Shown here in pieces: positions 23,831-51,936 of a stretch of 64,000 nt of DNA. The translations under genes were made by a program, and so were the position numbers. The DNA is from Candidatus Magasanikiibacteriota bacterium (GTDB lineage Bacteria; Patescibacteriota; Patescibacteriia; Magasanikbacterales; UBA922), in NCBI GenBank assembly GCA_052034405.1, contig JBPOIO010000001.1, forward strand, positions 67 through 64,066, written 5' to 3'. Each line of letters starts with the position of its first letter. Position 1 is the first letter of the stretch. The notes under the pieces are model-generated. The model made no database searches, was not told the origin of the DNA, and saw only the letters and a program-made list of their open reading frames with translations.

Positions 23831-23863
23831 TTACTTGTCCGTATTTGCGGATAATACAAGTAA
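23831..23863 (-). promoter_or_regulatory. 33-bp nested palindromic motif ~62 bp upstream of pyk; near-identical copy upstream of clpP
   Basis: Plus strand ttacttgtccgtatttgcggataatacaagtaa. Its reverse complement, ttacttgtattatccgcaaatacggacaagtaa, differs at 3 positions from ttacttgtattacccgcaggtacggacaagtaa at 51904-51936. Confidence 0.5.
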
Positions 23864-23895
23864 AAACTTAGCTCAGCTCCATAAAAATATAATTT

Positions 23896-24348
23896 TTACT
23901 TATTTTTAAGAGACTGAATTTCATTTTCAAAGGTCTTTACATCACTAAATGCTCGGTAGATAGACGCAAATCGAATATAAGCAACCGTATCAAATTTTTT
24001 CAAATGTTTCATTACAATTTCTCCAATATCATCACTTGTGACTTCACGTTTTTTCTTTTTTTGAATATCACGTTCAATCGCATGAATCAGTAAATCAAGT
24101 TTTTCTTGTGTATAAGGACGTTTTGTCAAAGATTGAACAATTCCTTTTGTCATCTTATTTCTCGAATACGCTTCTCGATCACCATTTTTTTTGACAACCA
24201 TAATATCGAGGAGTTCAATTTCCTCGATAGTAGAAAAACGATAACGACATTTTTCACACTCACGACGACGACGCACTGCCATTTGATCAGAGTTGAGGCG
24301 TGTATCGACTACTTTCGTTTCCTTAGATGGACACACCGGACAGTGCAT
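23896..24348 (-). CDS. nrdR: Transcriptional repressor NrdR
   Basis: Zn-ribbon MHCPVC...CEKC followed by an ATP-cone. Confidence 0.9.
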   Translation of the reverse strand: MHCPVCPSKETKVVDTRLNSDQMAVRRRRECEKCRYRFSTIEEIELLDIMVVKKNGDREAYSRNKMTKGIVQSLTKRPYTQEKLDLLIHAIERDIQKKKKREVTSDDIGEIVMKHLKKFDTVAYIRFASIYRAFSDVKTFENEIQSLKNK

Positions 24349-24374
24349 AGAAAAAACTTATTCGAAGAGGTGGA

Positions 24375-25679
24375 TTACATACCCATTTTACGACGTATAA
24401 AAGCTGGAATTTCGAGATCCTCACCATCATCAGTAGTATTTTTTGGAGGAAGTGGAGCCTGAACAGGTGGATTCACTTGAGCTGGCGCTCGAAAAGTATT
24501 TTCTTTTGGAAGAGACTTTGTACTAAAAACACTACTACGAGGTTCTTCAAGCTCTACTTCAACTTCCACTTCTACTTCTCGTACAGGCTCTCGAACAATT
24601 TCTCGTGGAGCTTGTTCACGATACATTTCAGAAGGTTTCTTTTTTACAAAAGTTGGAGCTGTTAATGTTGGTTTTGCTTTAAACATGCTCTGAACTTCTT
24701 CTTCACTCACACGAGTACGTCGTTCTATTTCTTCAAAACCAGTCGCAATTACGGTAATACGAAGTTCCTCACCAAGACTTTCATCAATAACCGTTCCAAA
24801 AATAACTTTCGCATTTTCATCAGCTGAACTCGTAATAATTTTGGCAGCCTCTGAGACTTCTTGCATTCCAAGACTTGCCCCACCTGTAATAGTAAAGAGA
24901 ATTCCTCTTGCCCCATCAATAGAAAGTTCAAGAAGTGGACTAGAAATTGCTGCGTTTGCTGCTTCAACCGCACGATTTTCACCTTTTCCAACACCGATTC
25001 CCATAAGGGCAGAACCAGTATCTTTCATGATCGTTTTAACGTCAGCAAAATCCACATTGATAAGCCCTGGAACCGTAATAAGTTCGGAAATTCCTTGAAC
25101 ACCCTGACGAAGAACATCATCTACAATTTTGAAGGCATCAAGAAGGGATGTTTTTTTATCAACAATTTGTAACACCTTATCATTTGGAATAGTAATAATA
25201 GTGTCTACTTGATCGGCCAATGCTTTGTAAGCATTGTCACCAATTTTTTTACGCTGTGCTCCTTCAAAAGAAAATGGTTTTGTTACAACAGCTACGGTCA
25301 AAGCACCCATATCATGAGCAATTTGAGCAATGACTGGACTTGCTCCAGAGCCAGTTCCACCACCAAGGCCACAGGTAATAAATACCATGTCAGCATCTTT
25401 CAAAAATTCACGAATTTCATTTTGAGATTCTTCGGCAGCACGTTTACCAATTTCTGGATCCATACCAGCACCAAGTCCTCGTGTAATGGTTTTTCCAATA
25501 TGCAATTTTCCCGAAGCACTATTGTGGTGCAAAGCTTGAACATCCGTGTTCATGACAATAAATTCCACACCTCGAATACCAGATCGAACCATACGATCAA
25601 CAGCAGATCCCCCTGATCCGCCAACACCAACAACTTTAATTTTTGCAAATGTTTCTACTTCAGGTTTTACTTGAGGCAT
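24375..25679 (-). CDS. ftsZ: Cell division protein FtsZ
   Basis: GGGTGSG tubulin signature. C-terminal [11 protein letters not shown] peptide. EV-repeat linker. Start at MPQVKP (cat at 25677-25679). Confidence 0.92.
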
Positions 25680-25854
25680 AGCATATATGTATAGTCTGAA
25701 CAAGAAAATTGTTCGGTATTTTAGCAATAGAATCTGTCTCTATAGTGTAGCGACTTTGACGTATACTGTCAAGAAAATCACAAAAATTTGTGTATAAGTT
25801 CGCTTATGAGAACAAAAAAACCTGCAAAAACAGGTTCTTTCTCTCGAAAAAAAA

Positions 25855-27120: not shown

Positions 27121-27136
27121 AGATAAATGCAGTATA

Positions 27137-27520
27137 TCAAAAAAAGAGAAAATTTTCAACTTGAAGATTCTTTATATAAGGCCAAAAAATACAAATTCCT
27201 ATAATAATACTCAGAAGTGAGGCCAAAAGAACGGCTCCTGCCATAATATCTTTGACCATTTTTACCTGCTCTGACAATCGAGGTTTTACCACATCAGCGA
27301 CATGTTCAATCGCAGTATTGATACATTCCAAAATAAGAATCAAAATAATCACGCTTGCCAGAAAAAGAAAACTCGTACCAGATATATGCAAAAAAATCCC
27401 CAAAAGAACTGCCAAAAAACCACAAAATAACTGAATACGAAAATTTTGTTCAGACTTGAAAACAAGTGCAATCCCACGAAGGGCGTATCCAAAACTTTTT
27501 TGAAGTTGTTTTATATTCAT
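27137..27520 (-). CDS. dgkA: Diacylglycerol/undecaprenol kinase DgkA family
   Basis: Three TM helices plus the ECINTAIEHVAD motif. Confidence 0.75.
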   Translation of the reverse strand: MNIKQLQKSFGYALRGIALVFKSEQNFRIQLFCGFLAVLLGIFLHISGTSFLFLASVIILILILECINTAIEHVADVVKPRLSEQVKMVKDIMAGAVLLASLLSIIIGICIFWPYIKNLQVENFLFF

Positions 27521-27942: not shown

Positions 27943-27961
27943 AATAGCAGAAAGACAAAAA

Positions 27962-29176: not shown

Positions 29177-29178
29177 AC

Positions 29179-30589: not shown

Positions 30590-33500
30590 CTATCGTTCAC
30601 GATTACATGGTTCACCAGGAACACGGCACAAAACGTCAGCAAATGATGTATCAACAGCACCATTTGGAAATTCAGTATTAAAGCCTGCTTCGTGAATTTG
30701 TCTCACTTCATATACACGATTTGCATTTTTTACCAAATTAAATACATGCCAATATTTTGCTATACCAGCATTCGCACTCGCAGTCGCACTACGAAGTGTA
30801 TATACATGTGTTGGCAAGTATAATGAAGATTCAGGGATTTGATCAGCTCTGTATTCATATATTTCTACCGTAACATCCAAATTATCAAAGGCAGAAATTG
30901 GTACGGTACTACTTCCACTAATAACTTCTACAAAGACTGCGTATGGAGAATTGTAATAACCATGATCCAATAAGCCCATACTATCCCCTGTTATAATTGT
31001 AGAAGCTTGTGCAGAAACACTCTGTAATGTTCCAGAATCATGCACAAATACAGATCCCTGAGTAATAAGATCTTGAGGGTTTCCATAAAAATCTTCACAA
31101 GCATCAGGTTGCCAATAATTAAAGATATTCAATCGTGCAAGATCCGCAATTTCAGCATTATTTAAACCATTATATACAGAAGTCATTCGAGAACAAAGAA
31201 AATTACGTCCACGATTTGCTCTATTACTCGAAAGAGCTTTCAATACATCAACACTCGCTGCAAAACGTTGTTCGGTTGTAGCATTAGCCCGCGCAGCATT
31301 TCCCAAAAAGTCGCGGTTATAAATCACAGGCGCAAAACTTACATCTGGTCCATCGGCGAAATGTTTCCATTTTACTACGACACGAAAAGTTCCCTGTGGT
31401 ACAGCTGGAGAAAGAACGAATTCATTGGCAATAGTTGTAAGTTCTGCATTTACAGGATATGGAAAAAATGATCCATACCGTTCATATTGCTCTTTAGCCC
31501 CAGCAACAGATAATTTTGTACTGATACTTGCATCGCTGCGATTTCCATTGAATTTGTCTGCTGTTACATCATCAAGATTAAAATAGGTTGCATATTGATC
31601 ACTACAGAGCAAATTTGTCTCAAGTCCACGAGCAATCGTTACTTTATTGGCACTCCAAGGACCAGCCTGCCGAGCAGAAGTTTTGTATCCATAATCACGA
31701 GCAAATGGAAAATTATGAATATTTGAAAGTAACCAAAATGATTGATTATAATCGGTTGTATTTACCCCCATTTCATAATTATGCCAACGAGTAGCAGCCG
31801 GCGCACTTGGATCTTCTTGAATAAAAACATTTTCGTTCTTCCAAGCCTCACTTCCACCGAGCGCTAATACTCCAGAAGCTGATGTTTTACTATTCACACG
31901 AAGCAAATAACGAGAAACAGAATTTGCCCAAGACGTATTTACATTATTTGCTCCGGGATTATTGATATCTTGTGGAGTCAAAACATTCAAGACAGCAATC
32001 TTTGGAGTAGCTTTTCCTCTATTATCTGAAGTTGTACAACTCACACAATTTGTCACCAAATTTTGACAATTATTTTCACATGTATAGGTTCCCCTATCAG
32101 CACAAATTGCAGGACGGTCGTCATTATTATAGAAAATTCTTAATGCTGTAGTATTTGCATTTGCAGGAGCATTATTTCCACCAGGAATAATTACTTGATT
32201 GGTAACAGGATCAATATCACAAACCTCTGGCTGTGCGACATTATTTATCTTTGAAAGACGAGAATCAATATCAATTTTACCATTTCCACAACTATCCAAA
32301 GGATCTTGAGTAAGTACTTTCTTACAATCACCAGAACAATAAGTGCAAGTTCGGCCATATTCCGACTCACAAGCTTGACCATTACTTGCCCCAGTATCAC
32401 AAACTTCCCCAGCATCTACAACAGCATTTCCGCAAGAACCAGCAACAGCTACCTCAGCGACAACATTGGGACGTAAACCATCACAGTGAATACGAACATC
32501 TTTATTAAGAGATGAATTCAAAATTTGTGCACATTGATCACCTGCGAGTGCTACCCAACCAAGATCCCCTACTACACCAATATTTCTTTTGGCTACAGAT
32601 TGACACTCAAGTCCAAATCCACGACAAATAGCATCCCCCGTAGTATTTATACATTCACTTGTAGTTTGATCATTATACGTAATTTTGACCAAAGTATCAT
32701 CTGTTCCAGGAGCGTTTCGATCAAAATGTGAAGTTGGATCTGTATGATCAATTGAAATTTGAGCTTGAGGAATTTGCTGAGCACAAGCAATATTCTCTAC
32801 TTGACAGAATTTACTGCAACCATCAAGACGATTGGTATTCCCATCATCACAAGTTTCATCAGAAATTTGAAGAATAGAATCTCCACAATAACCTCCACGA
32901 GCTTGACAATCCAAAGAACAAGATAATTGTTGTGTAATATAATAAGTTGGGTCATTAACAGAAACACAAGTATCACCAACATTTGGACAAGAAAAATTTG
33001 GACCAATACATATTGTACCGGATTTTTTACAATAACCAAAATTTACAAACGCAGGGTCAGCTTTATCACAATTTTCCAAAGAAGCTTCATTCGGATCTTT
33101 TACCCCATTATGGTTTTGGTCGTTAAAATTTATAATGGCATCACCACAAAATCCAGCATTGATATGAGCCGCATCATTTTGTGGTCCTGGAGGAGTACAA
33201 GCCAAAGAACAATGACCGTAACTACCATTGAGATTTCCGTCGTCACAAGTTTCACCCGCATCAATATGTCCATTTCCACAATTTGCATTGGCTCGACAAA
33301 CAGGAGCATCATACTGACAAGCGGCATTACAAGTATGATACGCTGTTTCACCCTGTCCACAAACAAGACCTGCTGCCCCACCCGCAACAGATGAAGTTCC
33401 TGGAGGATCACAAGCTTCACCAATATCTCGAATACCATTTCCACAGTTTCCAGCTACAGGTCGCAAAACTTCGAGACCTTGTTCACCACAAGAAGAGAGT

Positions 33501-36500
33501 GAAGTACTATAATGTGTTGTAGAAACCATTCCTTGGATAATACCTCGCTGATTAGCATTATTCATGTCAAAATATTCAAGAGGCAAATAGAGAGAATAAT
33601 GATTTGCATCAACTCCTTTATATTCAAGGACACTTGACTGAGCAGGGCAACTAAATGTTGCATCAGTACTATTCCAACAAGTCTGACTATCATCTGGTAA
33701 AATACATTTTGCAGGAGCAGCACCACAATCAGTATCTGTAGAACAAGCAACTTGACGACCGTTTTGTAAAGCTTCACAGTGTCCACAAGCACTCCATTGA
33801 TTCAATTCTGGCTCTGCTACATTACCAACAGCAGTAAGCAAACGTCCCCATGATGGCCAATGAGTATTGGTATAACCTGGGATATACGTACCTGCTGGCA
33901 AAAGTGGATAGGTACCATTTGCACTACGATAATCTTCGATTTTGTTTTCCAAATTCTGGATAGTATTGAGACGACTCCAATCTCTTTGAAATTTGCTTTT
34001 TGCATTTGCACAAATTCCATTTGTTGTTGACGTTGGAGTACCCAAGATCGTACGACACTCAAAATCATTTGTACAAGAGACAGAACTTACAGGAAGACTG
34101 TTAATATTTGCTGGAACATACTGACCAGCATCTCCATTTCCAGAAAGACAACTTTGTCGTTCAGAAATATTGATATTGAATATAAAGTGAGCCATGAATT
34201 TTTCCAAAACCTGTCTTGTATTTGCCTGAGCATCAGAATTTATACCAATCAAATAAATATAATTATGTACTGTTTTATCCTCAAGTTCATTGAGTACATT
34301 AATATAAGTATTATTTCCATCACTTATAGCATCATAACCATCTACAATAATGTCACGATATTTTTCAATTCCAGAAAAACCTTGCTCAATAAACCACTCT
34401 CGAGCTGAAGAACGATTTCCATTGGCAAAAACCTGAATACCAATAACATCATCGTTTTTATCATTGAAGAACAAGAATTTTTTGAGGGTTCCCTCTGGAA
34501 GATTGCTGTTGACAGCAGGTGCAACCCCAAGACACTGCTGTTGTCTAATTTGATTGAACGCGAGAATACCACGACATTCACCAACATTGTGACAAACTTT
34601 TCCATCAACACTACAATGGCCAACACTAGCCGCCAAATTTCCTTGAACCATAGGTCGCAAAAGTGGAAGGTCATCTGTTTTATCTCCAGAATTACCACTA
34701 TCCGCACAATAACCTGTACTAAAATTAAGGCTTACGAGTTTTCCACCCAAATTGATTTTTGGAATAGAAGCTCCATCAAAGATTTTTTTACTAAGATTGA
34801 AATGATCGTTATTGAAATTTCCAGCACCCAAACTTACACCATCTTCATATGGATAAGTAATTTGTGTTGGCCATGGATTTTCACAGAACATAGCAGTAAG
34901 ATTGCTTAGTCCAGCAAAAACACGACCAGTTTCTACATTTGTAGTATCAGCAGTAATAGCTATTTGTGCAGAAGCGACAATTGTACCTTCAAGATCTTTT
35001 GATGAAATTCTAATTCTATCAGTATTTACAATAGCAGGAAAAGTAAACAGACTATTATTACGAGGTTCCCAAGACCACTGCCAAGCATAACTTGGAGTAC
35101 TCACAATAAGAGCCCCCGTAGTACTTTTTACAGAAGCCACGAAGTCATGATTTGTATTGGGACGAGTAAATAAGTAACTTGAAGGATCAATATCAACGTC
35201 CTGAACTCGACAGATTTGACTTCCTGTTTCAAAAACAAAGATATCATCTGTGTGGAAACGATTGTTGTTATTCAAAAATACATTTCCTTGAATACCCACA
35301 CCATTTATATCTCGAATACCGCTATTTCCTCCACGAAGTACCACTGCATAAATAGTATTTGCTTCAAGAAGATCATTGACAGTAATATTCATACGAGTAG
35401 TCGTCGGAGCTCCTACATGTTCTAGTGGAATCACATCGATTTTTGGTACAATTTTCCCAGTACACCACACAGTACCTTTATTCGAAATCATATTCACCAA
35501 GTGAACTCCTACCTCAGCATGAACAACAGAGTTGAATACATCCACAAAAAATTGTTTTACATCACTCCAAATTCGAGCAAAAAGACCTGGTACTTGCTCA
35601 CCTCCAGAAAGAGCCAACAATGATCCAATTTCAGAAGTAACTTCTGTTTCATTAGCACTCGCACAGACATAACCTGCAGGATGTAAACTTGCAACAAGCA
35701 CAGAATTTGAAATTGTTTTTTCATCAATTTCACGATTAAATTCTGCAGCAATAAGAGAATTACGACAAACTTTATTGGCCTCCACAACTTCTCCAATACC
35801 AGTACCATTCAAAGGAAGTTCGCTTGTTCGAGTAGGACGAGCTTGACAACAAGAATTTGTACCTACACCCTGATTAGCATCAGGACAGTTATTGCTACGA
35901 GCAACACCATTTTCTACAATCGGAGTAGGATATTCCACATAACCACACTGAAGTGAATAGTCACCTTTTCCAATAATATTTCTCGCACGAAGAGATTCTG
36001 TTGTGGTTGCATTTTTTCGAACTTGAGTTGCTTGGACTTGAACCTTTGCTTCTTGCATCAAAGTAAGAGGATTTACCAAACCTTGACCAATAGCTGTAAC
36101 CACCTGAATAGGATCTTGATCAAATCCAGGATCAGCTACCAGATTAGCAGGTTCACAACGTGGATTTTCACCAAGTTCAGGAAGACCATTTCCACAAAGA
36201 GATGGAGTATCATAAAGTCCGGAAGAACCATGTTTTGTACAGTCACTATTACAACCAGCTGTTCCTGATTCACAACTGAAGTCACTTGAAATATTTGCTT
36301 TTATATCACAGATATTTTGTAAAACACAGCGATTTGTACAAGTAGTAGAAGCAGATGCTACCTCAATAAGGTCAATATTACCATTTGGAAGAACAACTTT
36401 TATGTGACGAGGCTCTGTTGTTTTTTCACATTCTTCACCTGGATCCAAATTTCCATCTCCACAAATAGTTGCAGAATTAAGACATTCAGAGGATTGTTTT

Positions 36501-39500
36501 TGATCACGAGTCAAATTGCTATGATTAGCAGGACAATTTGCTGCTTCACAAAGTGGTGCTTCACAATAAGCACGTGCCATTTTGGTACCAAGATGCAAAC
36601 AATTTTCTGAACAACCAAGAGCCGACCAAGAAGGATGTGCCCCAGCTTCTGCAAGTGAAATACCCAAATCACAATCTTCTCCCAAAAGGGCCAGTCCCCC
36701 ATCAGCAAGTCCAACTTTTCCATTTCCACATTGAAGTGAACCTACAGCATCTGAAAATTTTTGACTACTTCCCTTCCAAGTACAAGTATTTGTACAATAA
36801 TCTTTTTCTCCAGGAATACCAGGATCACATTCTTCACCAAAATTTGGTTCAAGAACTGCATTTCCACACAAACCAAGAACTGATTGATCTGTTGATGTTG
36901 TAAAATGTATATTTCCAGGACGCAAACAATTCAAAGTACAACTTACACCTGGAATTTCTCCAAGAGTTGCAACATCACAATCTTCCCCAGGATCAACTTG
37001 GGAATTCCCACAAAGATATGCTATTTGACCAAAAGGAATATCACTTCCAGCAGGAAGACAATTTCCACTACAATAAGCATAAGGACTTCCTTTGGTAGAA
37101 AAACCAGTTGTTGTTGCTACTTGCTGAGCTTCATTAACAGGAAGATCATCGGCACCTAATACAGTCCAATTCCAACCATAAGCCCAAGGATTCAAGCGCT
37201 GCCCAAGAGGACTACATTGATCTGGAGCACTCAGTGGTGATGCACCATACGCAGTTTTTTGACCAACAAGACTTGCTACAAAAGGACTTGGAACGACATC
37301 TACTTTATCCAAAATACAAATACCATCTTTTTCTTTTGTACGGAATTTCCAAACTTTTGGAGCAACTGCTTTTCCATCAATAGCTTGACCTCCAAGAGTA
37401 CCACCAAAAGCAATAACTTGATCGGTTAATGTAACTTGATACAAAGTATTCACATCCAAAGTTCCATCGACTGTAATTTCATATTGAAAAGGATCAAAGG
37501 CAGCAGCATTCACATCATGAAACGCCAAAGGTGCTTCTGGATTTTGACAATTTTCACCTATATCAAGTGGACCTGCACATTTTTGTACTTTCAAAGCACC
37601 ATGATAGGTATTGGTTTTCATTGGGAGATTGAATCTCACACCAATATTTACATTAGTACAAGACTGGTTACACTGTGGCCACCATTGTACTGCTTTTGGA
37701 TCACCAGGTTGTATAAACAAATTACTACTTCCTGTTACAACTTTATGAACACCATCAACTACAGTATCAGCAGAAGCAGTAATTACAACAGGGTCATTAG
37801 CAGTATTTTTGAGAGCAGTAACCGTAGCACGAATACTATCTGCATACAAAGAACTTGTTGTTGGAACATCTTTTTTGTCAGAACGAACAGCATATGCCAT
37901 ATCAGATAAGAGATCTTCTTCATTACCCTGTCTTGGTTTCCATTCAAAACCTTTTCCATTTACATCAACAACACTACAAGCTTGGCTTCCTCTTCCCCAA
38001 ACAAAGTAGTAAAAAGGATGTGCTGGAGCATCAAAATTGTCTGACAAAGGAAATGCTGGATTCTGAACCATTCCCAAAAGATGCGTTGTGTATTCTGGTG
38101 GGGTAATAGCCGCACCAAAAAGTGAACATGCTGCATTACTTGTTTTGAAATCAAAATTATAAGCAGCAGTAATTCCATTTACTGGAGCTGGCAAAGTTCT
38201 CTGCAAAGATAAAGGCGATGTATTTATTTTATTATTTCCAAATTCAACAAGACCTGGTTCATTGGCATGAAGTGTATTTCCCAAAATAACACGATGCCAA
38301 GTACCTGCTCTATGAGATGCTCCAGGAGCAAGTCTCAATTCCAAAATATCTGTTTGATTTCCTCCCAAAAATCCTACACTATATTGTCCTGTTACATCAT
38401 CAGCAGGAAGATATTTACAATCAGGTTTATCACCTTGTCCACAGGTATACACACGTACCGCAGAGTTCAAATTTACTTCAGACATGTGCATATTAAATTG
38501 CACCGTGATAATACTGTCAGTACAAGCATCCCCTACTCCCCAATTTTGCCAAGGTGAAGGTGAAGGACGAACAAAATTATCGATATTCAAATCTTGCCAG
38601 TCTGCAATATTACAAGCTTCAAGAACACGAGGAACATGTGGAATAAGCCCTGTGGTAAAACGCCAAACATAACCAGCCGAACGAGTTTCGCCCACACAAG
38701 CAAAAGCCTGAGGTTTCCACAAACCTTTTTCAGGACCATTTGTACAACATTGATAACCTACTCCAGGGGCATCTCCACCCAAAGTACAATCTGCAACATT
38801 ATATTGAACACTATTACTAAACTCATTTCCAGCACGAGCAAGAATTGGACCCGTAATCATAGAAACACCGGTGTTGTCAACAGGAAGCACGGTTTCAATG
38901 GTTGTTCCATCATTGGAGACACGACGGATGACATTATTGCCAAGCGGATCTTTATTATTTGAAGAAGTAAGCCAACGAGAATTTATACTCCAAAAATATA
39001 ACTCTGGATTTTGTGTCAAATTAATACCGGTAAGAATCAAAGGTGAAGCATTATTTGGAAGAGGTGCTACTCCAATATTTGGATTGATACGACAAAGCCC
39101 AGGAAGTGGATTTCCAGGAAGAAAAGTAATATTACTTGTTCCATCAGAATGATGATTAGAATCGTTTTTTACAACAACATAATACTTTCCAAGTTGGATT
39201 CCAGATGGAATTTTTCCAATAATTTGATTATCACTCCAAGTATCTCCACAGGCTTCTGGCAAAGTTGCCAAATCAAGACGTGCACAAGCAGCTTCAACAG
39301 CAGCATCTGATGTTCTTGCACAATTGAGTGCCGCATCTGCACTTGCTGCTATATATACCACTCCATGTCCACCAAAACGAGCACCGCTAATGGTAAGCAA
39401 ACTTCCAAGAGTAGAGGTCTGCGAAGGAGAAAGTGCATCAATATGTGGGACAAGATCAGCATCTCTATCAACAACAATAAATTCAACACCATTGGTAAAA

Positions 39501-41521
39501 GAATCGCCAATTTTTGCACGAACGCCCACACGTCCTGGAGACATGTTTTGAGGAACAGAACTCAAAATAGTTGCTTCATTCCATTGACGGATCGGAGCAT
39601 TGACTCCACCAAAAAGAAGCGCACTATTATTGCCACCATTTCCAAGTCCACGACCAAAGGCAGTCACTGGAGCACTTGATGATGCAATATTGGTATTTGT
39701 TGGACCAAGAACAGCACAAAGTCCAGGATGATCGTTATTACTCATTTTGAAAATACCAGCATTTGGACCAGCTTTTGGACCATGATCATCGTTACTCAAA
39801 TCTTCGTAAGCTGGTTTATCCCCTGCTGCACGAGTTTTGATACGAATTGTAGTACTTGTACCAACAGGAAGGTTTGGAATTTCTACAATCACCATGTTGT
39901 CATGCCATACATCAAGTCCATTACAAGAAGCAAATGGAGCAGGAACCCACTGATCAATACTACCATCAGCATTATTATCAATACCAAAATCTACAGAACC
40001 AGAATCTTCACCAAAAAAATTACCCAAAATAGTTGCCCAACTTCCGGGAGCACCATCCCAAGAACTTGGACTTGCACCACCGACATCAACATCCCGAATA
40101 ATAGGTCGATTCACACAAGAACCATTTTGACAATCACCACTTACACACTGCCAATTGGCATTACAAGCTCCATCACCAAGACATTTTCCACCAATATCAA
40201 TAGCTGTTTCGCCAGCATCCTGACGACCATTGTGACAAAGATCTCCATCAAGTACAAAACTTGAAGTTGCGACGGTAATATTGTGATCAATATCTGCAAC
40301 AGTGAAAGTCAAATTATACAAAGCAGGAACCGAAGCATCGGAAGCAAAAACAAGATCTTGATTCAAAGAAAAAGCTTCGTTTGAACCGCTACGAGGGCCA
40401 GAATAATATGACCAATTTACTTTTTCTCCAGCAGGATCTCTTGGTTCACTTTGAACATTCAAAGCAAGATAAGAAATACCTCCAAAAGAAATATTTTGAC
40501 CATCTTCTTTACGGCGATCTTCAAATGTTGCATTGAGATGATATTTTGCATTTCGAGGAACAATCTGCCCTTCTCTTGTATTTTTTCCATTAAAGGTAAT
40601 AGAATCAGTAATTGGAGAAAGAAGATCCAAGAAATCTCGGTTTACATTAAAAAGTGATGTTGTATCAAAAATTCCACAAGCCAATTTTGTTTGGAGTTTG
40701 AGTCCCCCGGCAACAAGATCAGGATTCACTTCAACTTTATATTCTCCAGGAGAAAGACAACTACGAGTGTCACCATCAGCATTACAAAGATTTGTGTCCT
40801 CACCAAAAAAGGCTTCTACGACCTGTCTACCAGGAAGTATTTTTATTGATTTTACAGGAATAGTATTGCTTCCTTTTGAAAGTTTGAAAATTTTATTTTT
40901 ATCTTGATTTTCATCAAGTGGACGACTAAACACAGCACGAACGATGGTATTACTCATACCTGTACCACTATTTGTTGGTGTTCGAGGAGTCAAACTTTTG
41001 ACCACAAAGGCATCGTCACCACACTCACGAGGACCCCCCGCTACTGCCTGACAGTCGGCAAAGTTGGCACAAGCAGGAACTCCTCCACGAACTCCCCCAC
41101 CATCATTAACAAGTCCCCCACTTCCCGTTGCCATGGCTAAACGTGAAATAATAAACTGTGTAATAGCAAAAGAAGACATGATAATAGCAAGTCCAATAGT
41201 AGCGTTAATCAATGTTTTTTTTGCACTCGCAATTTTTTCTTCGTTTCCACCACTCGTCATCCAGGTAAAACCAGCATACAAAATCAAAGCAACAGCAATA
41301 ATTCCCAAAAGACTAAGCGCAATACGAATAATCTTGGCAGCAATAACACGAATATCTTCACCACCAAGCGGAAGAAGACTTCCTACCTTTTGAAGTCCAA
41401 AAGGTGCATTTCCAGCCTGTGCAGAAACGTGATTAAAAGCAAGGAAAATACCACCCAAAAAGAAAACAGAAAAAAGAAAAAGAAAATATTTGCGTTTAAA
41501 TAAAGTGCCAACAAAATGCAT
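30590..41521 (-). CDS. Giant (3643 aa) surface protein: signal peptide plus T4SS-pilin-like (VirB2/TrbC-type) two-helix N-terminal domain fused to an extracellular region with many Myxococcus-type Cys-rich repeats
   Basis: Uninterrupted 10.9-kb ORF. N-terminal IRVIAAKIIRIALSLLGIIAVALILYAGFTWMTSGGNEEKIASAKKTLINATIGLAIIMSSFAITQFII has the helix-loop-helix pilin pattern. Repeats include CGNAVLEPNFGEECD, CGDGNLDPGEECE, CGNGHIDAGETCDDGN, CGDSILQISDETCDDGN and CGNAVVDAGEVCD. Confidence 0.85.
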   Translation of the reverse strand: MHFVGTLFKRKYFLFLFSVFFLGGIFLAFNHVSAQAGNAPFGLQKVGSLLPLGGEDIRVIAAKIIRIALSLLGIIAVALILYAGFTWMTSGGNEEKIASAKKTLINATIGLAIIMSSFAITQFIISRLAMATGSGGLVNDGGGVRGGVPACANFADCQAVAGGPRECGDDAFVVKSLTPRTPTNSGTGMSNTIVRAVFSRPLDENQDKNKIFKLSKGSNTIPVKSIKILPGRQVVEAFFGEDTNLCNADGDTRSCLSPGEYKVEVNPDLVAGGLKLQTKLACGIFDTTSLFNVNRDFLDLLSPITDSITFNGKNTREGQIVPRNAKYHLNATFEDRRKEDGQNISFGGISYLALNVQSEPRDPAGEKVNWSYYSGPRSGSNEAFSLNQDLVFASDASVPALYNLTFTVADIDHNITVATSSFVLDGDLCHNGRQDAGETAIDIGGKCLGDGACNANWQCVSGDCQNGSCVNRPIIRDVDVGGASPSSWDGAPGSWATILGNFFGEDSGSVDFGIDNNADGSIDQWVPAPFASCNGLDVWHDNMVIVEIPNLPVGTSTTIRIKTRAAGDKPAYEDLSNDDHGPKAGPNAGIFKMSNNDHPGLCAVLGPTNTNIASSSAPVTAFGRGLGNGGNNSALLFGGVNAPIRQWNEATILSSVPQNMSPGRVGVRAKIGDSFTNGVEFIVVDRDADLVPHIDALSPSQTSTLGSLLTISGARFGGHGVVYIAASADAALNCARTSDAAVEAACARLDLATLPEACGDTWSDNQIIGKIPSGIQLGKYYVVVKNDSNHHSDGTSNITFLPGNPLPGLCRINPNIGVAPLPNNASPLILTGINLTQNPELYFWSINSRWLTSSNNKDPLGNNVIRRVSNDGTTIETVLPVDNTGVSMITGPILARAGNEFSNSVQYNVADCTLGGDAPGVGYQCCTNGPEKGLWKPQAFACVGETRSAGYVWRFTTGLIPHVPRVLEACNIADWQDLNIDNFVRPSPSPWQNWGVGDACTDSIITVQFNMHMSEVNLNSAVRVYTCGQGDKPDCKYLPADDVTGQYSVGFLGGNQTDILELRLAPGASHRAGTWHRVILGNTLHANEPGLVEFGNNKINTSPLSLQRTLPAPVNGITAAYNFDFKTSNAACSLFGAAITPPEYTTHLLGMVQNPAFPLSDNFDAPAHPFYYFVWGRGSQACSVVDVNGKGFEWKPRQGNEEDLLSDMAYAVRSDKKDVPTTSSLYADSIRATVTALKNTANDPVVITASADTVVDGVHKVVTGSSNLFIQPGDPKAVQWWPQCNQSCTNVNIGVRFNLPMKTNTYHGALKVQKCAGPLDIGENCQNPEAPLAFHDVNAAAFDPFQYEITVDGTLDVNTLYQVTLTDQVIAFGGTLGGQAIDGKAVAPKVWKFRTKEKDGICILDKVDVVPSPFVASLVGQKTAYGASPLSAPDQCSPLGQRLNPWAYGWNWTVLGADDLPVNEAQQVATTTGFSTKGSPYAYCSGNCLPAGSDIPFGQIAYLCGNSQVDPGEDCDVATLGEIPGVSCTLNCLRPGNIHFTTSTDQSVLGLCGNAVLEPNFGEECDPGIPGEKDYCTNTCTWKGSSQKFSDAVGSLQCGNGKVGLADGGLALLGEDCDLGISLAEAGAHPSWSALGCSENCLHLGTKMARAYCEAPLCEAANCPANHSNLTRDQKQSSECLNSATICGDGNLDPGEECEKTTEPRHIKVVLPNGNIDLIEVASASTTCTNRCVLQNICDIKANISSDFSCESGTAGCNSDCTKHGSSGLYDTPSLCGNGLPELGENPRCEPANLVADPGFDQDPIQVVTAIGQGLVNPLTLMQEAKVQVQATQVRKNATTTESLRARNIIGKGDYSLQCGYVEYPTPIVENGVARSNNCPDANQGVGTNSCCQARPTRTSELPLNGTGIGEVVEANKVCRNSLIAAEFNREIDEKTISNSVLVASLHPAGYVCASANETEVTSEIGSLLALSGGEQVPGLFARIWSDVKQFFVDVFNSVVHAEVGVHLVNMISNKGTVWCTGKIVPKIDVIPLEHVGAPTTTRMNITVNDLLEANTIYAVVLRGGNSGIRDINGVGIQGNVFLNNNNRFHTDDIFVFETGSQICRVQDVDIDPSSYLFTRPNTNHDFVASVKSTTGALIVSTPSYAWQWSWEPRNNSLFTFPAIVNTDRIRISSKDLEGTIVASAQIAITADTTNVETGRVFAGLSNLTAMFCENPWPTQITYPYEDGVSLGAGNFNNDHFNLSKKIFDGASIPKINLGGKLVSLNFSTGYCADSGNSGDKTDDLPLLRPMVQGNLAASVGHCSVDGKVCHNVGECRGILAFNQIRQQQCLGVAPAVNSNLPEGTLKKFLFFNDKNDDVIGIQVFANGNRSSAREWFIEQGFSGIEKYRDIIVDGYDAISDGNNTYINVLNELEDKTVHNYIYLIGINSDAQANTRQVLEKFMAHFIFNINISERQSCLSGNGDAGQYVPANINSLPVSSVSCTNDFECRTILGTPTSTTNGICANAKSKFQRDWSRLNTIQNLENKIEDYRSANGTYPLLPAGTYIPGYTNTHWPSWGRLLTAVGNVAEPELNQWSACGHCEALQNGRQVACSTDTDCGAAPAKCILPDDSQTCWNSTDATFSCPAQSSVLEYKGVDANHYSLYLPLEYFDMNNANQRGIIQGMVSTTHYSTSLSSCGEQGLEVLRPVAGNCGNGIRDIGEACDPPGTSSVAGGAAGLVCGQGETAYHTCNAACQYDAPVCRANANCGNGHIDAGETCDDGNLNGSYGHCSLACTPPGPQNDAAHINAGFCGDAIINFNDQNHNGVKDPNEASLENCDKADPAFVNFGYCKKSGTICIGPNFSCPNVGDTCVSVNDPTYYITQQLSCSLDCQARGGYCGDSILQISDETCDDGNTNRLDGCSKFCQVENIACAQQIPQAQISIDHTDPTSHFDRNAPGTDDTLVKITYNDQTTSECINTTGDAICRGFGLECQSVAKRNIGVVGDLGWVALAGDQCAQILNSSLNKDVRIHCDGLRPNVVAEVAVAGSCGNAVVDAGEVCDTGASNGQACESEYGRTCTYCSGDCKKVLTQDPLDSCGNGKIDIDSRLSKINNVAQPEVCDIDPVTNQVIIPGGNNAPANANTTALRIFYNNDDRPAICADRGTYTCENNCQNLVTNCVSCTTSDNRGKATPKIAVLNVLTPQDINNPGANNVNTSWANSVSRYLLRVNSKTSASGVLALGGSEAWKNENVFIQEDPSAPAATRWHNYEMGVNTTDYNQSFWLLSNIHNFPFARDYGYKTSARQAGPWSANKVTIARGLETNLLCSDQYATYFNLDDVTADKFNGNRSDASISTKLSVAGAKEQYERYGSFFPYPVNAELTTIANEFVLSPAVPQGTFRVVVKWKHFADGPDVSFAPVIYNRDFLGNAARANATTEQRFAASVDVLKALSSNRANRGRNFLCSRMTSVYNGLNNAEIADLARLNIFNYWQPDACEDFYGNPQDLITQGSVFVHDSGTLQSVSAQASTIITGDSMGLLDHGYYNSPYAVFVEVISGSSTVPISAFDNLDVTVEIYEYRADQIPESSLYLPTHVYTLRSATASANAGIAKYWHVFNLVKNANRVYEVRQIHEAGFNTEFPNGAVDTSFADVLCRVPGEPCNRER

Positions 41522-44107: not shown

Positions 44108-44113
44108 ATTATT

Positions 44114-47222: not shown

Positions 47223-47320
47223 ACATTAATCTGTTTAAACTGAACTGTCGACATGTGGAAAATCCACCAGTTCTTTCACAAAAAGAAGTATAGCAAATAT
47301 TTTATCCAAAAGTCAACATA

Positions 47321-47356
47321 AAAAGAAAAACTGTCCACAGTGGGACAGTTTTTTGA
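47321..47356. terminator. Rho-independent terminator downstream of rpsP (bidirectional geometry)
   Basis: aaaaaactgtcc-acagtg-ggacagtttttt. Confidence 0.7.
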
Positions 47357-47364
47357 AATATATT

Positions 47365-47685: not shown

Positions 47686-47762
47686 AGTATATAAATAGAG
47701 ATAATACGAAGATTAGGTGACGATTAGAGCTGGGCGCATTATAGCGAAAATCTGGAAACTTG

Positions 47763-50700
47763 TCAAGAGCTCTTTGCTTCTGATAATTTTACACTCAAAA
47801 GCTGAGATACCCCATTTCCTCCCATAGTCACCCCATAAATAGCATCTGCAGCATGCATAGTCACTCGATTATGGGTAATAATGATAAACTGTGAAGCTTC
47901 CGAGAGTTCTTTGAGGATCTGGACGACTCGAAGGGTATTGGCTTCGTCAAGTGCCGCTTCAACCTCGTCAAGAATAACAAATGGTGATGGGTTCGTACGC
48001 AAAATAGCACAAATAAGCGCAATAGAAGTAAGGGTTCGCTCTCCACCGGAGAGGGCCTGAATATTGTTGATTTTCTTTCCTGGAGGGCACGCCAAAATAT
48101 CAATCCCCTTCAAGATCTTTTTCACTTTTTTTGATCCTGTATCTACATCGTTTTCTTTTTCTTCAGATTCTGAACCTTCTATTTCATCTTCATACACTTC
48201 TATCAAATCAGCACTTCCCCCATCAAACAAAATAGCAAAGTAACGGGCAAATTCTTTTTTCATTTCTTTGAATGCCTTATTGCGTTTTTTCTTCATGATA
48301 TCATCAAGCTCTTGCACCAAAGTTTCAAGATCATTCAAAGTTTTTTTCAAATCCTTGAGCTGACCATCAAGATTATCAAAACGAGATTTTGTTTCTTCAT
48401 ATTCTGCCACAACACTTTCATCAATACCACCAATAAGTGAAAGTGTATATTTGAGTTTTTGAATACGCACACCTACTTGTTCTTGTTCTGCAGCTTCAAA
48501 TACCTTATGCCCACGAGAAGCAATAGAGTCAAGTGATACATGCAATTCTTCAAATACTTCTCTTGCAATATCTTCTTCACGAGTTTCGAGTTTGGCCAGT
48601 TCAATTTGACGAGTATTTTTTTGTGCAATAGCAGCGTTCACAGATGCCTGTAACTCTTGCATTGAATCTTGCAGGGCAAAAACACGTTGTTTTTTGACTT
48701 CTTCTTCTGCATGAAAATTATTGACTTTACTTTCGGCAACAGCTATTTCTTGGTCCAATTCTTGCATGGTATCAAGTATCATTTGCTTTTGGATTTCAAT
48801 ATCTTTCAATACTTCGCTATATTGTTCGGGACTAAGTGTTTCAAGATTGAGTTCGTGCTCGAGTGCGGCAATTTCTGAATCTACACTTTTCTTTTGATTT
48901 TCTTGCAAATCCATTTTGCTTTTCAAAAACAAGAGTTCTCCAGATCGAGCCTGGAGTTCTTCACGACACTCTTCAAAACGAATTTCAAAATGTTCAAATT
49001 CTGCTCTTTTGTTTTTGAGTTCAGCTTCTGAAAGGGCCACATCAAAATCAGTAAAGGCAGAAGCGCCTGATGCAAAACTCAATCTATCATCTCGCCCGCG
49101 ACGGTATCCACCTTTTACCACACCACTTGTTTCAAATAGATCTCCCTGAAGTGTCACCATACGAATACGACCAATACCAACAGCACGGGCCGCATCCATA
49201 TCTTCTACTACCAAAGTGGAACCAAAAATTAAAGAAAAAACATCGTTATATTTTGCATTGTATTTGATCAAATCCATGGCGAGTCCTCGTACACCCTGTT
49301 CTTTCAAAAGTGTTTTCACCATTTCTGGCATTTGACGTGGACGCAGTGTGGTCAATGGCAAAAATGTCGCTACACCAAATTGGTTGGAACGTAAATAATC
49401 AATACATTTTTTGGCAACATTTTCGTCACTAATCACAATCGATGACAAATAATTTCCAGCAGCAACATCGAGTGCTACGACATATTCTTTTTCTACTTTT
49501 CCAAGTGTTGCAACGACACCAAAAATATCTCCGAGTTGGTTTCGAGCCTCAAGAATCGCCTGTACGGCACGAAGCCCCGTCAACTGAAATACAGACTGCT
49601 CGGCTTTGGCATAGGTTGTTTCGGTTTCAAGACGTGTAATATCTCCACGCAGTGCCACTTTGGAAATATTGATGCGTTGCAATTCGTTTTGCAAAGTATT
49701 GACGGCACTTTGTTTCGTCGCCGTTTCTTTTTCAATATTTTCAATTTCTTTTTCAATAAGAGACTGATCGTTTTTCAATGTTTCTACTTTTTCTTTCATC
49801 CAACCAACCTGAGTCGCACCGGCTTTTCTGTATTCACTTTGTGATTTTCCTTCTAATATTGTAAGTTCACGCTCAAGTGCATTTTTTTGTTTTACAACAT
49901 CTTGATATTCATTTTGCAAAGCCGTAAAAATTTCTTGACGAGAAGATTCACGAGATAAATGTGCCAGTTCTTCTTGGATCGAAAGCAAGTTTTTTTCACT
50001 GAGTCGCAAATTATCGTCAATAGCAAAAATTTCATTTCGAAGTACTTGGATTTGACCGCGAAACTGTGTTGCGAGTGTTGCATAATGGCGTTCTTGAAGT
50101 TCACGAAGTTCAATTTCAACTTCTTGACGTTCGGTCAATTTTTGGACCTGACGAGACAAAATTTTTAAACGTGGTTCAATTTCGTGAAAAAGCAATTCTG
50201 CTTGAGAAATATGACTTCGAGTACGATCAAGGCGAAGCATGGCCTGGTGACGTTTGATTTGAAATTCTTTGATACCACTGGCTTCATCAAAAAATTCCTT
50301 GCGCTCTTCCATGCTTTGCAAAATCATCTTATCAATCATCCCCTGTCCAATAATTCCATGTGCACCACTTCCTGTTTGGGCTTTGGCAAGCAAAATATTG
50401 ACGTCAATCAAACGAGCTTCGTGACCATTGATAATATATTCACTTTCTCCCGAACGATAAAGCCTGCGACCAATAACAAGTTCTTCGTAATCAATCGGAG
50501 CTTTTTTGTCAGTATTATCAAAAGTAATAAAAACACTGGCCATACTGAGTTGGCCCTTGTGCTCGGATCCGGCAAAGATAATATCTTCACTTTTTTTACC
50601 ACGAAGGAGCTTGAGACTCTGTTCTCCCATAACCCAGCGAAGGGCATCGGCCACATTACTTTTACCAGAGCCATTTGGACCAACAATTACCGTAATACTC

Positions 50701-50789
50701 TCTTTTCCTCCAGATCCTGGCAAAAAATCCAAAACAGTCTTGTCGGCAAAAGACTTAAAACCCTGAATTTCAATACGTTTCAAAAACAT
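47763..50789 (-). CDS. smc: Chromosome segregation protein SMC
   Basis: N-terminal Walker A GPNGSGKSN, long coiled coils and hinge, and C-terminal LSGGERTLTSIAL...ILDEVEAALD. Confidence 0.92.
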   Translation of the reverse strand: MFLKRIEIQGFKSFADKTVLDFLPGSGGKESITVIVGPNGSGKSNVADALRWVMGEQSLKLLRGKKSEDIIFAGSEHKGQLSMASVFITFDNTDKKAPIDYEELVIGRRLYRSGESEYIINGHEARLIDVNILLAKAQTGSGAHGIIGQGMIDKMILQSMEERKEFFDEASGIKEFQIKRHQAMLRLDRTRSHISQAELLFHEIEPRLKILSRQVQKLTERQEVEIELRELQERHYATLATQFRGQIQVLRNEIFAIDDNLRLSEKNLLSIQEELAHLSRESSRQEIFTALQNEYQDVVKQKNALERELTILEGKSQSEYRKAGATQVGWMKEKVETLKNDQSLIEKEIENIEKETATKQSAVNTLQNELQRINISKVALRGDITRLETETTYAKAEQSVFQLTGLRAVQAILEARNQLGDIFGVVATLGKVEKEYVVALDVAAGNYLSSIVISDENVAKKCIDYLRSNQFGVATFLPLTTLRPRQMPEMVKTLLKEQGVRGLAMDLIKYNAKYNDVFSLIFGSTLVVEDMDAARAVGIGRIRMVTLQGDLFETSGVVKGGYRRGRDDRLSFASGASAFTDFDVALSEAELKNKRAEFEHFEIRFEECREELQARSGELLFLKSKMDLQENQKKSVDSEIAALEHELNLETLSPEQYSEVLKDIEIQKQMILDTMQELDQEIAVAESKVNNFHAEEEVKKQRVFALQDSMQELQASVNAAIAQKNTRQIELAKLETREEDIAREVFEELHVSLDSIASRGHKVFEAAEQEQVGVRIQKLKYTLSLIGGIDESVVAEYEETKSRFDNLDGQLKDLKKTLNDLETLVQELDDIMKKKRNKAFKEMKKEFARYFAILFDGGSADLIEVYEDEIEGSESEEKENDVDTGSKKVKKILKGIDILACPPGKKINNIQALSGGERTLTSIALICAILRTNPSPFVILDEVEAALDEANTLRVVQILKELSEASQFIIITHNRVTMHAADAIYGVTMGGNGVSQLLSVKLSEAKSS

Positions 50790-50868
50790 AGCCAGAAAGG
50801 CATTATTATGGGTACGATTATACCACTATTGACAATCCAAGGCAACTGCTATAGAATAAGCTGTTTCT

Positions 50869-51837
50869 ATGAATAATCACAGCGCAAAACAAATTTACGA
50901 AGCCGTACAAAAGGCCCGTTCCATTTTACTTATCCCCCACCAAAATCCAGACGGGGATGCTTTGGGTGCTTCTACTGCTTTTGCCGTATGGCTTGGTAAT
51001 ATTGAAAAAGATTTTACTATTTTTTGTAAAACTCCTCATACTCCAAAATTTTCTTATCTCCCGCTTGAAAAATTTACAACAGATCCAGCGACTTGGGAGA
51101 AAAAATTTGACCTCGTTATTGTCTTTGATTCTGGAGATCTTCGCTATGCTGGAGTATCCGAAGAAATTGCTCGGGTTCGTGAAGAGATCACTCTTGTAGA
51201 TATTGACCACCATGCTACCAATGAATTTTTTGGCGATTTGAATTTTGTTGATATAAAGGCTTCTTCTACCTCTGAAATGGTGCAAAGATTTTTTTCTATC
51301 AACCATATTACCTTGCAAAAAGAAATCGCTACGGGCCTTCTCACTGGTTTTATTACTGATACTGACAACTTTACCAATGGAGCAACATCTTCTCTTGCGA
51401 TGACAGCTGTAAGCCAGCTCCTGCGCAGTGGTGGACGTATGAGCCCTATTCAAAATCGTGTTTATAAAAATATCTCTATTCCAGCATTGAAAGTCTGGGG
51501 AAAAATGTTGAATCGTCTGAATAAAAATGAAGCCTTGGATATTGTCTCTACCTATATCACCCAAGAAGATATTGCCGAGGCAGGGATCCAAGAAAGCGAT
51601 ATTGATGGACTTGCCAACTTTATGAATATGATTGATGAAGGCAAAGCAAAAATGATCTTAAAAGAACTTGAAAAAGGCAAATGGAAAGGAAGCTTTCGTA
51701 CCACACGCGACGATGTGGATGTTTCTGCGTGGGCAGCGAAGATGAATGGTGGCGGTCATAAAAAAGCTGCGGGATTTAAAGTTGATGGGACGATTGACGA
51801 GGCTTTTGAAAAAATATTTACTATCATCAATACCTAA
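50869..51837 (+). CDS. nrnA: DHH/DHHA1 phosphoesterase (NrnA-like nanoRNase / pAp phosphatase)
   Basis: DHH motifs HQNPDGDALGA and DIDHH. DHHA1 GGGHKKAAG. Confidence 0.8.
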   Translation: MNNHSAKQIYEAVQKARSILLIPHQNPDGDALGASTAFAVWLGNIEKDFTIFCKTPHTPKFSYLPLEKFTTDPATWEKKFDLVIVFDSGDLRYAGVSEEIARVREEITLVDIDHHATNEFFGDLNFVDIKASSTSEMVQRFFSINHITLQKEIATGLLTGFITDTDNFTNGATSSLAMTAVSQLLRSGGRMSPIQNRVYKNISIPALKVWGKMLNRLNKNEALDIVSTYITQEDIAEAGIQESDIDGLANFMNMIDEGKAKMILKELEKGKWKGSFRTTRDDVDVSAWAAKMNGGGHKKAAGFKVDGTIDEAFEKIFTIINT

Positions 51838-51903
51838 AAAATAAACTTTTTGTTTCGAGTATAGAAAAAGTTCTTTTTGGAGGCTGTCGCAGCGTTTCAT
51901 TTT

Positions 51904-51936
51904 TTACTTGTATTACCCGCAGGTACGGACAAGTAA
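51904..51936 (+). promoter_or_regulatory. 33-bp nested palindromic motif ~95 bp upstream of clpP (second copy of the pyk-upstream motif)
   Basis: ttacttgtattacccgcaggtacggacaagtaa. Outer 8-bp arms ttacttgt/acaagtaa, inner ccg...cgg. Confidence 0.5.

Follow-up and report, generated by a model that had tools for sequence, protein, structure and literature searches.

The 64-kb window analyzed here (i.e., the whole stretch of 64,000 nucleotides, from a Magasanikbacteria genome of the Candidate Phyla Radiation (CPR)) contains two junctions whose short spacers carry a near-identical palindromic 33-mer, one between nrdR and pyk and the other between a DHH/DHHA1 phosphoesterase gene and clpP (Table 1). 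A first-pass annotation had reported this pair, and direct reading of the sequence together with a pattern search bore out its positions, strands and three mismatches (TTACTTGTATTATCCGCAAATACGGACAAGTAA on the pyk side and TTACTTGTATTACCCGCAGGTACGGACAAGTAA on the clpP side), as well as the distances to the start codons (62 nt to the pyk ATG at 23768 and 95 nt to the clpP ATG at 52032) and the same orientation of both copies, each with respect to its downstream gene. The identities of pyk and clpP were also confirmed by Pfam. The homologs of their products assign the genome to the Patescibacteria, near MAGs (metagenome-assembled genomes) that bear the name Candidatus Magasanikbacteria, and an exact-sequence look-up of the ClpP protein returned no record. 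A degenerate pattern of the 33-mer matched twice in the window, compared to 0.00 matches expected from 100 dinucleotide-preserving shuffles, and neither relaxed pattern searches nor the covariance model R1, run with filters off, revealed a third copy of the 33-mer there. As described below, both 33-mers are the tips of long, covarying hairpins that belong to a dispersed family of intergenic repeats of approximately 100 nt.

Alignment of the regions upstream of pyk and clpP showed that the similarity between both sites continues past the 33-mer on both sides. By folding the extended regions, the 33-mer was found to be the tip of one long hairpin at each site, of 96 nt at pyk (−26.8 kcal/mol, z = −6.2) and of ~110 nt at clpP (−35.5 kcal/mol, z = −4.7), with outer stems that are unlike in sequence between the two copies and nevertheless paired in both. 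Within the family as a whole, the size of this imperfect hairpin was 95–110 nt, with the window copies spanning 96–110 nt. The whole hairpin is supported by covariation. In the RNAalifold consensus of the 15 copies of the clpP kind (type B), 9 of the 35 pairs showed compensatory double changes, and in that of the 14 copies of the pyk kind (type A), compensatory changes were observed in 8 of 28 pairs. Standard pairs accounted for 96.9% of the cells in the 31 apical modules and for 97.5% in type B, and these values dropped to 39–52% when the partners were slid by 1–3 columns. Similarly, covariation scores of 0.235 and 0.214 were obtained, compared to 0.057 and 0.072 upon shuffling, with none of 500 shuffles reaching the observed values.

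With regard to the apical module, its stem (UUACUUGU/ACAAGUAA) is prolonged outward as UUUUU/AAAAA and beyond, an internal loop opposes AU in the 5′ arm to YGG in the 3′ arm, and an inner helix of 4 bp (U-N-N-C/G-N-N-A) closes a CGCA tetraloop in 31 copies. The two central pairs of this inner helix covary, with GC, CG, UA and AU forms. The inner helix is hence not made of the CCG/CGG arms that the first-pass annotation had proposed, since it is UNNC/GNNA around CGCA that covaries across the 31 copies; a further inner fold of the 33-mer, GTATT/AATAC, was rejected as well, given that it is not preserved in L005 (related loci are referred to by L numbers throughout). Even the seemingly invariant stem has a compensatory variant, ACTGGT/ACCAGT, in a type A copy of L038, which indicates that the search patterns under-sample the real diversity of the family. 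Beyond the apical module, 2–3 short covarying helices are followed by a copy-specific outer helix, in which the sequence differs from copy to copy and pairing is always kept. The helices are interrupted by conserved, asymmetric internal loops, consisting of GCAGCG opposite AAGCGA in type B and of GAGM opposite YGA in type A, and GGAG is unpaired close to the 5′ base of the element. Orthologous copies also differ by compensatory changes, both in the apical and in the outer helix (for the latter, e.g., L029 vs. L034, and the window vs. L005).

For 23 of 31 copies, the predicted fold of the element-sense RNA was more stable than that of the opposite strand (p = 0.0097, Wilcoxon test), and the predicted helices of the sense strand contain ~15 G·U pairs vs. 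~7 A·C mismatches. On these two grounds, the antisense strand, which would form a C(UGCG)G tetraloop and turn two mismatches into G·U pairs, was disfavored as a functional RNA.

The extent of the family was established by several searches. When one genome per GTDB species was scanned with a degenerate pattern, 5 copies were retrieved from two MAGs, four of them in one MAG, and a scan of JGI metagenome contigs with a relaxed 29-nt pattern retrieved 25 loci. At least 12 copies were distributed across ten contigs of a single genome, Ga0155219, which corresponds to GCA_001784205.1, as deduced from the identity of locus L040 with L018. Additional copies were detected in L037–L040 with the covariance model R1. 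Once duplicates were removed, 32 distinct copies remained, i.e., 14 of type A, 15 of type B and 3 other or composite ones, with the apical module common to all of them. The consensus of type A reads ..TTTTTAT-GGAGCYGAGMTAAnn-TTTTT[core]AAAAA-nnTTAYGARGCGAAT-AAAAA.., and that of type B reads ..TTCTTTTT-GGAGnnnGTCGCAGCGTTTAAn-TTTTT[core]AAAAA-nTTATAAGCGAGACnnCG-AAAAAAGAA.., where the core stands inside the prolonged apical stem. Both scans of large collections fixed much of the apical stem, which leads to an underestimate of how diverse and how taxonomically widespread the family is. All copies found sit in relatives of this Magasanikbacteria genome, with a density of approximately one copy per 20–30 kb in a clade of Candidatus Magasanikbacteria; the window itself holds two copies and one remnant. 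Copies in the window and in the other genomes are all intergenic. Two element-carrying MAGs (L007–L011; CAZQRI01..., CAZKAD01...) bear record titles that read "uncultured Gammaproteobacteria". Both the genes and the spacers of these MAGs have orthologs in this clade (e.g., atpB-atpE in L010 and L019), and the label is probably wrong.

Outside this clade, no matches to the relaxed motif were present in viral contigs, and blastn of the type B element against phage and plasmid records gave no match. Rfam 15 recognized only the tmRNA and tRNAs in the whole window at the gathering threshold, only sub-threshold chance matches at both sites at E values of up to 10, and only tRNAs in eight related loci, with no riboswitch upstream of the L029 and L034 copies. 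Literature searches on CPR repeats, miniature inverted-repeat transposable elements (MITEs) and structured RNAs yielded no account of this kind of element in CPR bacteria. Twelve of the 14 type A copies hold a four-codon open reading frame (ORF), ATG GAG CYG NNN TAA (MELS*, MEPQ*, MELR*), which lacks a Shine-Dalgarno sequence (e.g., window 23868-23882 on the minus strand). This mini-ORF was dropped as a functional feature because it has no counterpart in type B and its TAA lies within a helix; it is probably incidental.

The features of both window loci are compiled in Table 1. In general, the elements take up nearly all of the short spacers in which they lie: they usually begin ~0–30 nt after a stop codon and end ~10–60 nt before the next start, and within operons they fill spacers of 100–170 nt such as that of atpB-atpE. 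The type A element of the window fits tightly in this way, as it begins at the first base past the nrdR stop codon and stops 31 nt short of the pyk ATG.

Table 1. Features of the nrdR-pyk and DHH-clpP junctions in the 64-kb window.
Feature	Coordinates	Strand	Description or basis
33-nt apical module, pyk side	23831..23863	-	8-bp stem TTACTTGT/ACAAGTAA, internal loop AT/CGG, inner helix TATC/AATA (one C·A mismatch), CGCA loop
33-nt apical module, clpP side	51904..51936	+	Inner helix TACC/GGTA, CGCA loop
Complete type A element, 96 nt	23800..23895	-	Conserved blocks: 5′ TATGGAGCTGAGCTAAG, 3′ CTTACGAAGCGAATAAAAA; outer helix copy-specific
Complete type B element, ~110 nt including the copy-specific outer helix	51864..51973	+	Conserved blocks: 5′ TTCTTTTTGGAGGCTGTCGCAGCG, 3′ ATAAGCGAGACGACGAAAAAAGAA
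Outer-arm remnant of a third copy (type A, antisense), AAAATAAACTTTTTG	51838..51852	+	Alignment of the DHH-clpP spacer; L038 and L018 sequences
nrdR, upstream of the type A copy	23896..24348	-	Pfam Zn_ribbon_NrdR and ATP-cone
pyk, downstream of the type A copy	22365..23768	-	Pfam PK and PK_C
DHH/DHHA1 phosphoesterase gene, upstream of the type B copy	50869..51837	+	Pfam
clpP, downstream of the type B copy	52032..52631	+	Pfam CLP_protease
TATACT, -10-like box between the element and the clpP ATG	52003..52008	+	TATACT or TATAAT in 6/6 compared genomes
TATAAT, -10-like box between the element and the pyk ATG	23784..23789	-	Present in L026 too; TAATTA in L005

Based on Pfam and on translations, elements occupy the nrdR-pyk, DHH-clpP, atpB-atpE, atpF-atpH and metG-cvpA junctions. 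According to Pfam, copies also lie upstream of rpsL (encoding S12), the transketolase gene tkt, groES-groEL (locus L021), dprA, a PLP (pyridoxal phosphate) decarboxylase gene, an NTP transferase gene, znuA and cvpA, and inspection of translations placed copies downstream of metG, pheT, secY and pth. No functional theme was apparent among these neighbors. When independent loci were considered with ORF-based gene calls, ~17 elements were sense and ~5 antisense to the neighboring genes. The copies of L020 and L036 are preceded by a stop codon and followed by a canonical terminator, a placement which implies that they are inside a transcript; those of L029 and L034 have a terminator-like hairpin on one side and a start codon on the other.

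Just upstream of the element and the PLP-decarboxylase gene in L034, a GC-rich, structured-looking stretch without Rfam match (L034:8590-8960, minus strand) is followed by a promoter-like site (TTGACA-17-TACAGT), a 20-codon ORF and a terminator-like hairpin. This region may correspond to an unannotated RNA or to a leader-peptide attenuator.

A terminator scan detected no terminator-like site at either window locus, and no U-tract follows the stem. The genome uses ordinary terminators: the sole marginal match obtained when the window was searched for diverged copies with the covariance model R1, at 14440-14475, is a perfect 14-bp GC-containing hairpin between an A-run and a T-run (AAAAATCTCCACTC-GAGG-GAGTGGAGATTTTT), i.e., a canonical bidirectional intrinsic terminator. 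A promoter scan of the window sites found no consistent promoter-like site inside the elements, with -10-like boxes falling downstream of them, and the 3′ flanks of all copies showed no -10 box at a fixed distance. The box ahead of clpP lies 23 nt from the ATG, at homologous positions in L018, L025, L037 and L038, and conservation across six genomes extends over the ~60 nt that separate the element from this start codon. This box is probably a real clpP promoter or leader; were it the promoter, the element would lie upstream of the clpP transcription start. The box ahead of pyk might play the same -10-like role.

The comparison of orthologous sites revealed both retention and turnover of copies. 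The type B copy between the DHH gene and clpP was present in the six genomes compared, and the type A copy between nrdR and pyk was present in the window, L005 (GCA_964884485.1) and L026 (GCA_001784205.1). L001 and L003 lack the element at this junction, where nrdR is separated from pyk by only 3 bp, while the family is present elsewhere in both genomes. A further type A copy, in antisense, lies directly behind the DHH stop codon in L018, L039 and L040 (L018:1188-1290) and in L038 (9700-9800). This copy has been deleted in the window, where its distal outer arm alone was retained (Table 1), and a separate deletion removed it in L025 (1350-1420), in which what is left of its 5′ arm has become coding sequence for the C-terminal end (..ISAP*) of the DHH protein. 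An element-derived C-terminus was also considered for the DHH protein of the window and rejected after comparison with L038, such that it holds for L025 only. Nested or composite copies were found in L019, L020 and L036. In particular, a third basal type (GCAAGAGACTGAAACAGATCA ... TTTTCTGTGAAGCTCTG) is placed within type B outer arms in the atpB-atpE spacer (L019:360-510), and type B elements are enclosed or trailed by type-A-like 3′ arms in L036:5060-5230 and L020:1850-1976. Orthologous elements were identical at 85/96, 89/98, 99/109 and 97/109 positions (88–91%), and the four-fold degenerate sites of the flanking orthologous genes were 45–64% identical. The conservation of the element is thus well above that of neutral sites, despite gain, loss and inversion of copies.

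Taken together, these observations lead us to conclude with high confidence that the element belongs to the stem-loop intergenic repeat families of the ERIC, BOX, NEMIS and REP kind. Its less usual traits are that one constant apical module is combined with different conserved basal modules and that a copy-specific outer helix is kept paired. As to function, our preferred reading is a co-transcribed RNA hairpin that acts as a determinant of processing, stability or insulation between cistrons, a proposal for which we see, by analogy with known repeats, about as much reason to expect it as to doubt it. The element would be transcribed within the neighboring mRNA, mostly in sense, from ~0–30 nt past the upstream stop codon, and would fold into a single long hairpin; its conserved loops (GGAG, GCAGCG/AAGCGA, AU/YGG and CGCA) and the long helix might then govern how the cistrons are processed, stabilized or insulated from each other, with a double-strand-specific RNase or some other RNA-binding protein as mediator. 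We infer transcription, action at the RNA level and a protein partner, with the argument for co-transcription being one of position, i.e., operon spacers and gaps between stop codon and terminator. A more specific version, which we regard as speculative and rather unlikely, is that the element is a host-maintained cis-RNA module rather than selfish DNA, whose apical hairpin (AU/YGG and CGCA) and unpaired GGAG would dock a dedicated RNA-binding protein or RNase, and which would tune how strongly cistrons that encode abundant proteins are expressed relative to each other. If this were true, the subunits c and delta of ATP synthase, GroES/EL, ClpP, S12, Pyk and Tkt would be joined in a post-transcriptional "regulon" by a shared structured RNA.

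Several observations weigh against a co-transcribed hairpin acting in cis. The clpP copy of L037 (9840-9945) is inverted in place compared to that of the window, with unchanged flanks and an intact element, and the element between atpF and atpH is sense in L013 (869-965) and antisense in L019 (1449-1547), again with unchanged flanks and an intact sequence; such in-place inversions were probably generated by recombination between the arms. In copies antisense to their neighbors, the element-sense strand, and not the mRNA-sense strand, still folds better. The strand preference is therefore a property of the family and not an adaptation to the local mRNA strand, which is unlike what pure action in cis on mRNA predicts. 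Furthermore, with a -10-like box downstream of the element at both clpP and pyk, the element may be part of the 3′ region of the upstream gene instead of the 5′ untranslated region. The invariance of the core is in part an artifact of search patterns that fixed the stem, and conservation could partly derive from homogenization among copies or from selection for mobility, and not from host function. Presence and absence at orthologous sites (the empty nrdR-pyk junction of L001 and L003, and the independent loss of the post-DHH copy in the window and in L025) also fit a selfish element.

Such an element, recognized as single-stranded DNA, is the main rival to the RNA-hairpin reading. It would be MITE-like or REP/RAYT-like, spreading as DNA by means of a transposase that recognizes the hairpin in single-stranded DNA, and would have no host function, its conservation reflecting mobility selection and homogenization. 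The multi-copy, dispersed nature of the family, the nested and composite copies and the copies inverted in place are all in line with this proposal, as is a strand preference intrinsic to the element and independent of the mRNA strand; the orientation bias could in turn stem from the direction of replication. Nevertheless, filled and empty sites (nrdR-pyk and the 3′ end of the DHH gene) showed no target-site duplications, and the flanks are inverted complements. The ends are not conserved terminal repeats, given that the outer arms are copy-specific, with pairing kept by compensatory changes at orthologous loci. Neither the conservation and asymmetry of the internal loops between the two arms nor the retention of copies at the same site across species in which four-fold sites are near saturation is readily accounted for by mobility. 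In addition, no transposase was seen beside any copy (no genome-wide RAYT/Y1 search was made), and phage, plasmid and viral collections hold nothing similar. On balance, we consider a purely selfish hairpin unlikely.

A second alternative is that the elements are independently transcribed, trans-acting small RNAs, or decoys that sponge an RNA-binding protein via unpaired GGA motifs. Conserved unpaired GGAG, YGGA and CGCA on one defined strand, the preference for the element-sense strand whatever the orientation of the neighbors, and the tolerance of inversion would all be expected in that case. This contrasts with the flanks, which are copy-specific and offer no conserved promoter or terminator, with the filling of 100–170 nt operon spacers, and with the lack of any match to an Rfam family, so that we judge small RNAs or decoys to be quite improbable.

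The first-pass annotation had proposed that the palindrome was either a dimeric transcription factor site or an RNA hairpin of the 5′ untranslated region, and that it defined a lineage-specific regulon linking protein quality control (clpP) with glycolysis (pyk). The RNA hairpin was upheld in the form of a long covarying hairpin; the transcription factor site and the regulon were not. A double-stranded operator for a dimeric regulator would agree with the nearly invariant 11-bp arms (TTTTTACTTGT/ACAAGTAAAAA), with the type B copy kept ahead of clpP in 6/6 genomes and another copy preceding groES-groEL in L021, and with in-place inversion, which a symmetric DNA site would tolerate. The invariance of the arms, however, is partly imposed by the search pattern and is broken by the compensatory stem variant of L038, and the compensatory changes in the 17-bp spacer and in at least 60 nt of flanking helices are sensible only for a folded single strand. 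Several copies, moreover, follow stop codons before terminators or sit between atp cistrons. We therefore exclude a double-stranded clpP-pyk operator, and hold operators of this kind to be very improbable, because covariation extends over ~100 nt, the conserved loops are asymmetric, the copies are numerous and scattered, the neighbors have no shared function, and the nrdR-pyk copy is missing in two relatives. The annotation had itself named two outcomes that would speak against the regulon, namely that the motif is a dispersed repeat unrelated to gene starts, or that it is absent from orthologous upstream regions, and both were observed. On the one hand, the searches uncovered 32 dispersed copies beside unrelated genes, at least 12 of them in one MAG, in both orientations and in some cases in 3′ regions before canonical terminators; on the other hand, the orthologous comparison found the copy absent at nrdR-pyk in two relatives and inverted at clpP in one. 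The annotation was correct in setting the motif apart from CIRCE and CtsR boxes: by inspection, neither element contains CIRCE (TTAGCACTC-N9-GAGTGCTAA) or the CtsR tandem heptad (A/G)GTCAAA.

An unconventional terminator or attenuator hairpin marking gene ends seems to us hardly credible, since, in spite of the long, stable hairpin that usually starts 0–30 nt after a stop codon, no U-tract follows the stem and the terminator scan was empty at both window sites, the same genomes use canonical terminators with a GC stem and a T-run (e.g., window 14440-14475), which directly adjoin elements in L020/L036 and L029/L034, and copies sit between atp cistrons, for which co-transcription is expected.

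CPR/Patescibacteria genomes measure ~1 Mb, have very little space between genes and encode few known regulators. To our knowledge, Magasanikbacteria have very few transcription factors, and we know of almost nothing on the non-coding elements of CPR/Patescibacteria. A repeat of ~100 nt that fills spacers would be among the first families of structured non-coding elements to be described in these bacteria, and it offers a handle on how operon expression is organized in CPR bacteria or, alternatively, on mobile DNA that survives in streamlined genomes. In addition, the clpP-pyk regulon is removed as a false lead, and the alignments and the covariance model are supplied for annotation of the family.

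A series of other features was noted in the window. Its first 500 bases (1-500, up to ~700) have a GC content of 78–84%, compared to ~40% in the rest, and contain or adjoin GC-rich inverted repeats at 264-337 and 633-680; this start has the appearance of a chimeric end of the contig, or of foreign DNA fused with Magasanikbacteria sequence. At 55514-55601, the first of three tandem tRNA-Ser genes has an anticodon loop TTACTAA and hence the anticodon ACT (A34), which is unusual for a serine tRNA, and adjoins tRNA-Ser(TGA) and tRNA-Ser(GCT). Two giant ORFs, of 3643 aa (30590-41521) and 1825 aa (963-6440), lie on the minus strand. Downstream of clpP (57–63 kb), synteny with L037/L038 points to proteins resembling those of conjugation or type IV secretion systems (TraC-like, PrgI and TraG P-loop) and to a giant protein with a T4SS-pilin domain.

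With regard to known systems, three classes of element did not fit. MITE-type terminal inverted repeats were not seen, as the outermost arms differ between copies and the inner blocks GGAGCTGAG and CGAAGCGAAT are not inverted copies of each other. Integron attC core sites (RYYYAAC ... GTTRRRY) were not present at the element ends, whose neighbors are core housekeeping genes (an integrase was not searched for), and no sigma-70 promoter cassette with -35 and -10 boxes at a fixed place was found inside the element. CIRCE resembles the element in that inverted repeats stand ahead of chaperone and protease genes, as element copies do ahead of clpP and groES; in contrast, the element also precedes many non-stress genes and is a structure of ~100 nt with covariation.

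A closer likeness exists with other repeat families. As in REP/BIME, intergenic palindromes are located right after stop codons within operons. REP sequences are present in hundreds of copies and have roles in mRNA stabilization and, when near stop codons, in translation; they are, however, of 20–40 nt, with a GTAG-type head and an association with RAYT, whereas the element has ~100 nt and no such head. The RPE repeats of Rickettsia are likewise palindromic, of ~100–150 bp and housed in a reduced genome, and they can join coding sequence, which recalls the DHH end of L025. RPEs typically lie in-frame within genes, whereas the elements described here are intergenic and the coding overlap of L025 arose from a deletion. 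BOX of Streptococcus pneumoniae and Correia/NEMIS of Neisseria share with the element a modular, hairpin-forming and multi-copy intergenic nature and, as we infer for the element, co-transcription. Correia hairpins are substrates of RNase III, and BOX elements modulate adjacent genes. Unlike the element, Correia repeats are bounded by conserved terminal inverted repeats with TA target duplications, neither of which was seen here, and BOX is built of boxA, boxB and boxC modules.

The best parallel is provided by ERIC/IRU, with which the element shares an imperfect palindrome of ~100–130 bp forming a single long stem-loop, an intergenic location in either orientation, length variants and conservation across species. 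This likeness is meant as one of proposed mode of action, and not of membership in the family defined by the 127-bp ERIC consensus. ERIC, BOX, NEMIS/Correia, REP/BIME and RPE have been catalogued as stem-loop intergenic repeat families (PMC2267715), and in the same work ERIC is described as folding into one long stem-loop, with Yersinia ERICs acting as RNA hairpins on the expression of neighboring genes (PMC2267715). The element differs from ERIC/IRU in its host, a CPR bacterium of another phylum with a very small genome, and in its architecture, in which a constant apical module is set on at least two conserved basal modules and completed by a copy-specific outer helix.

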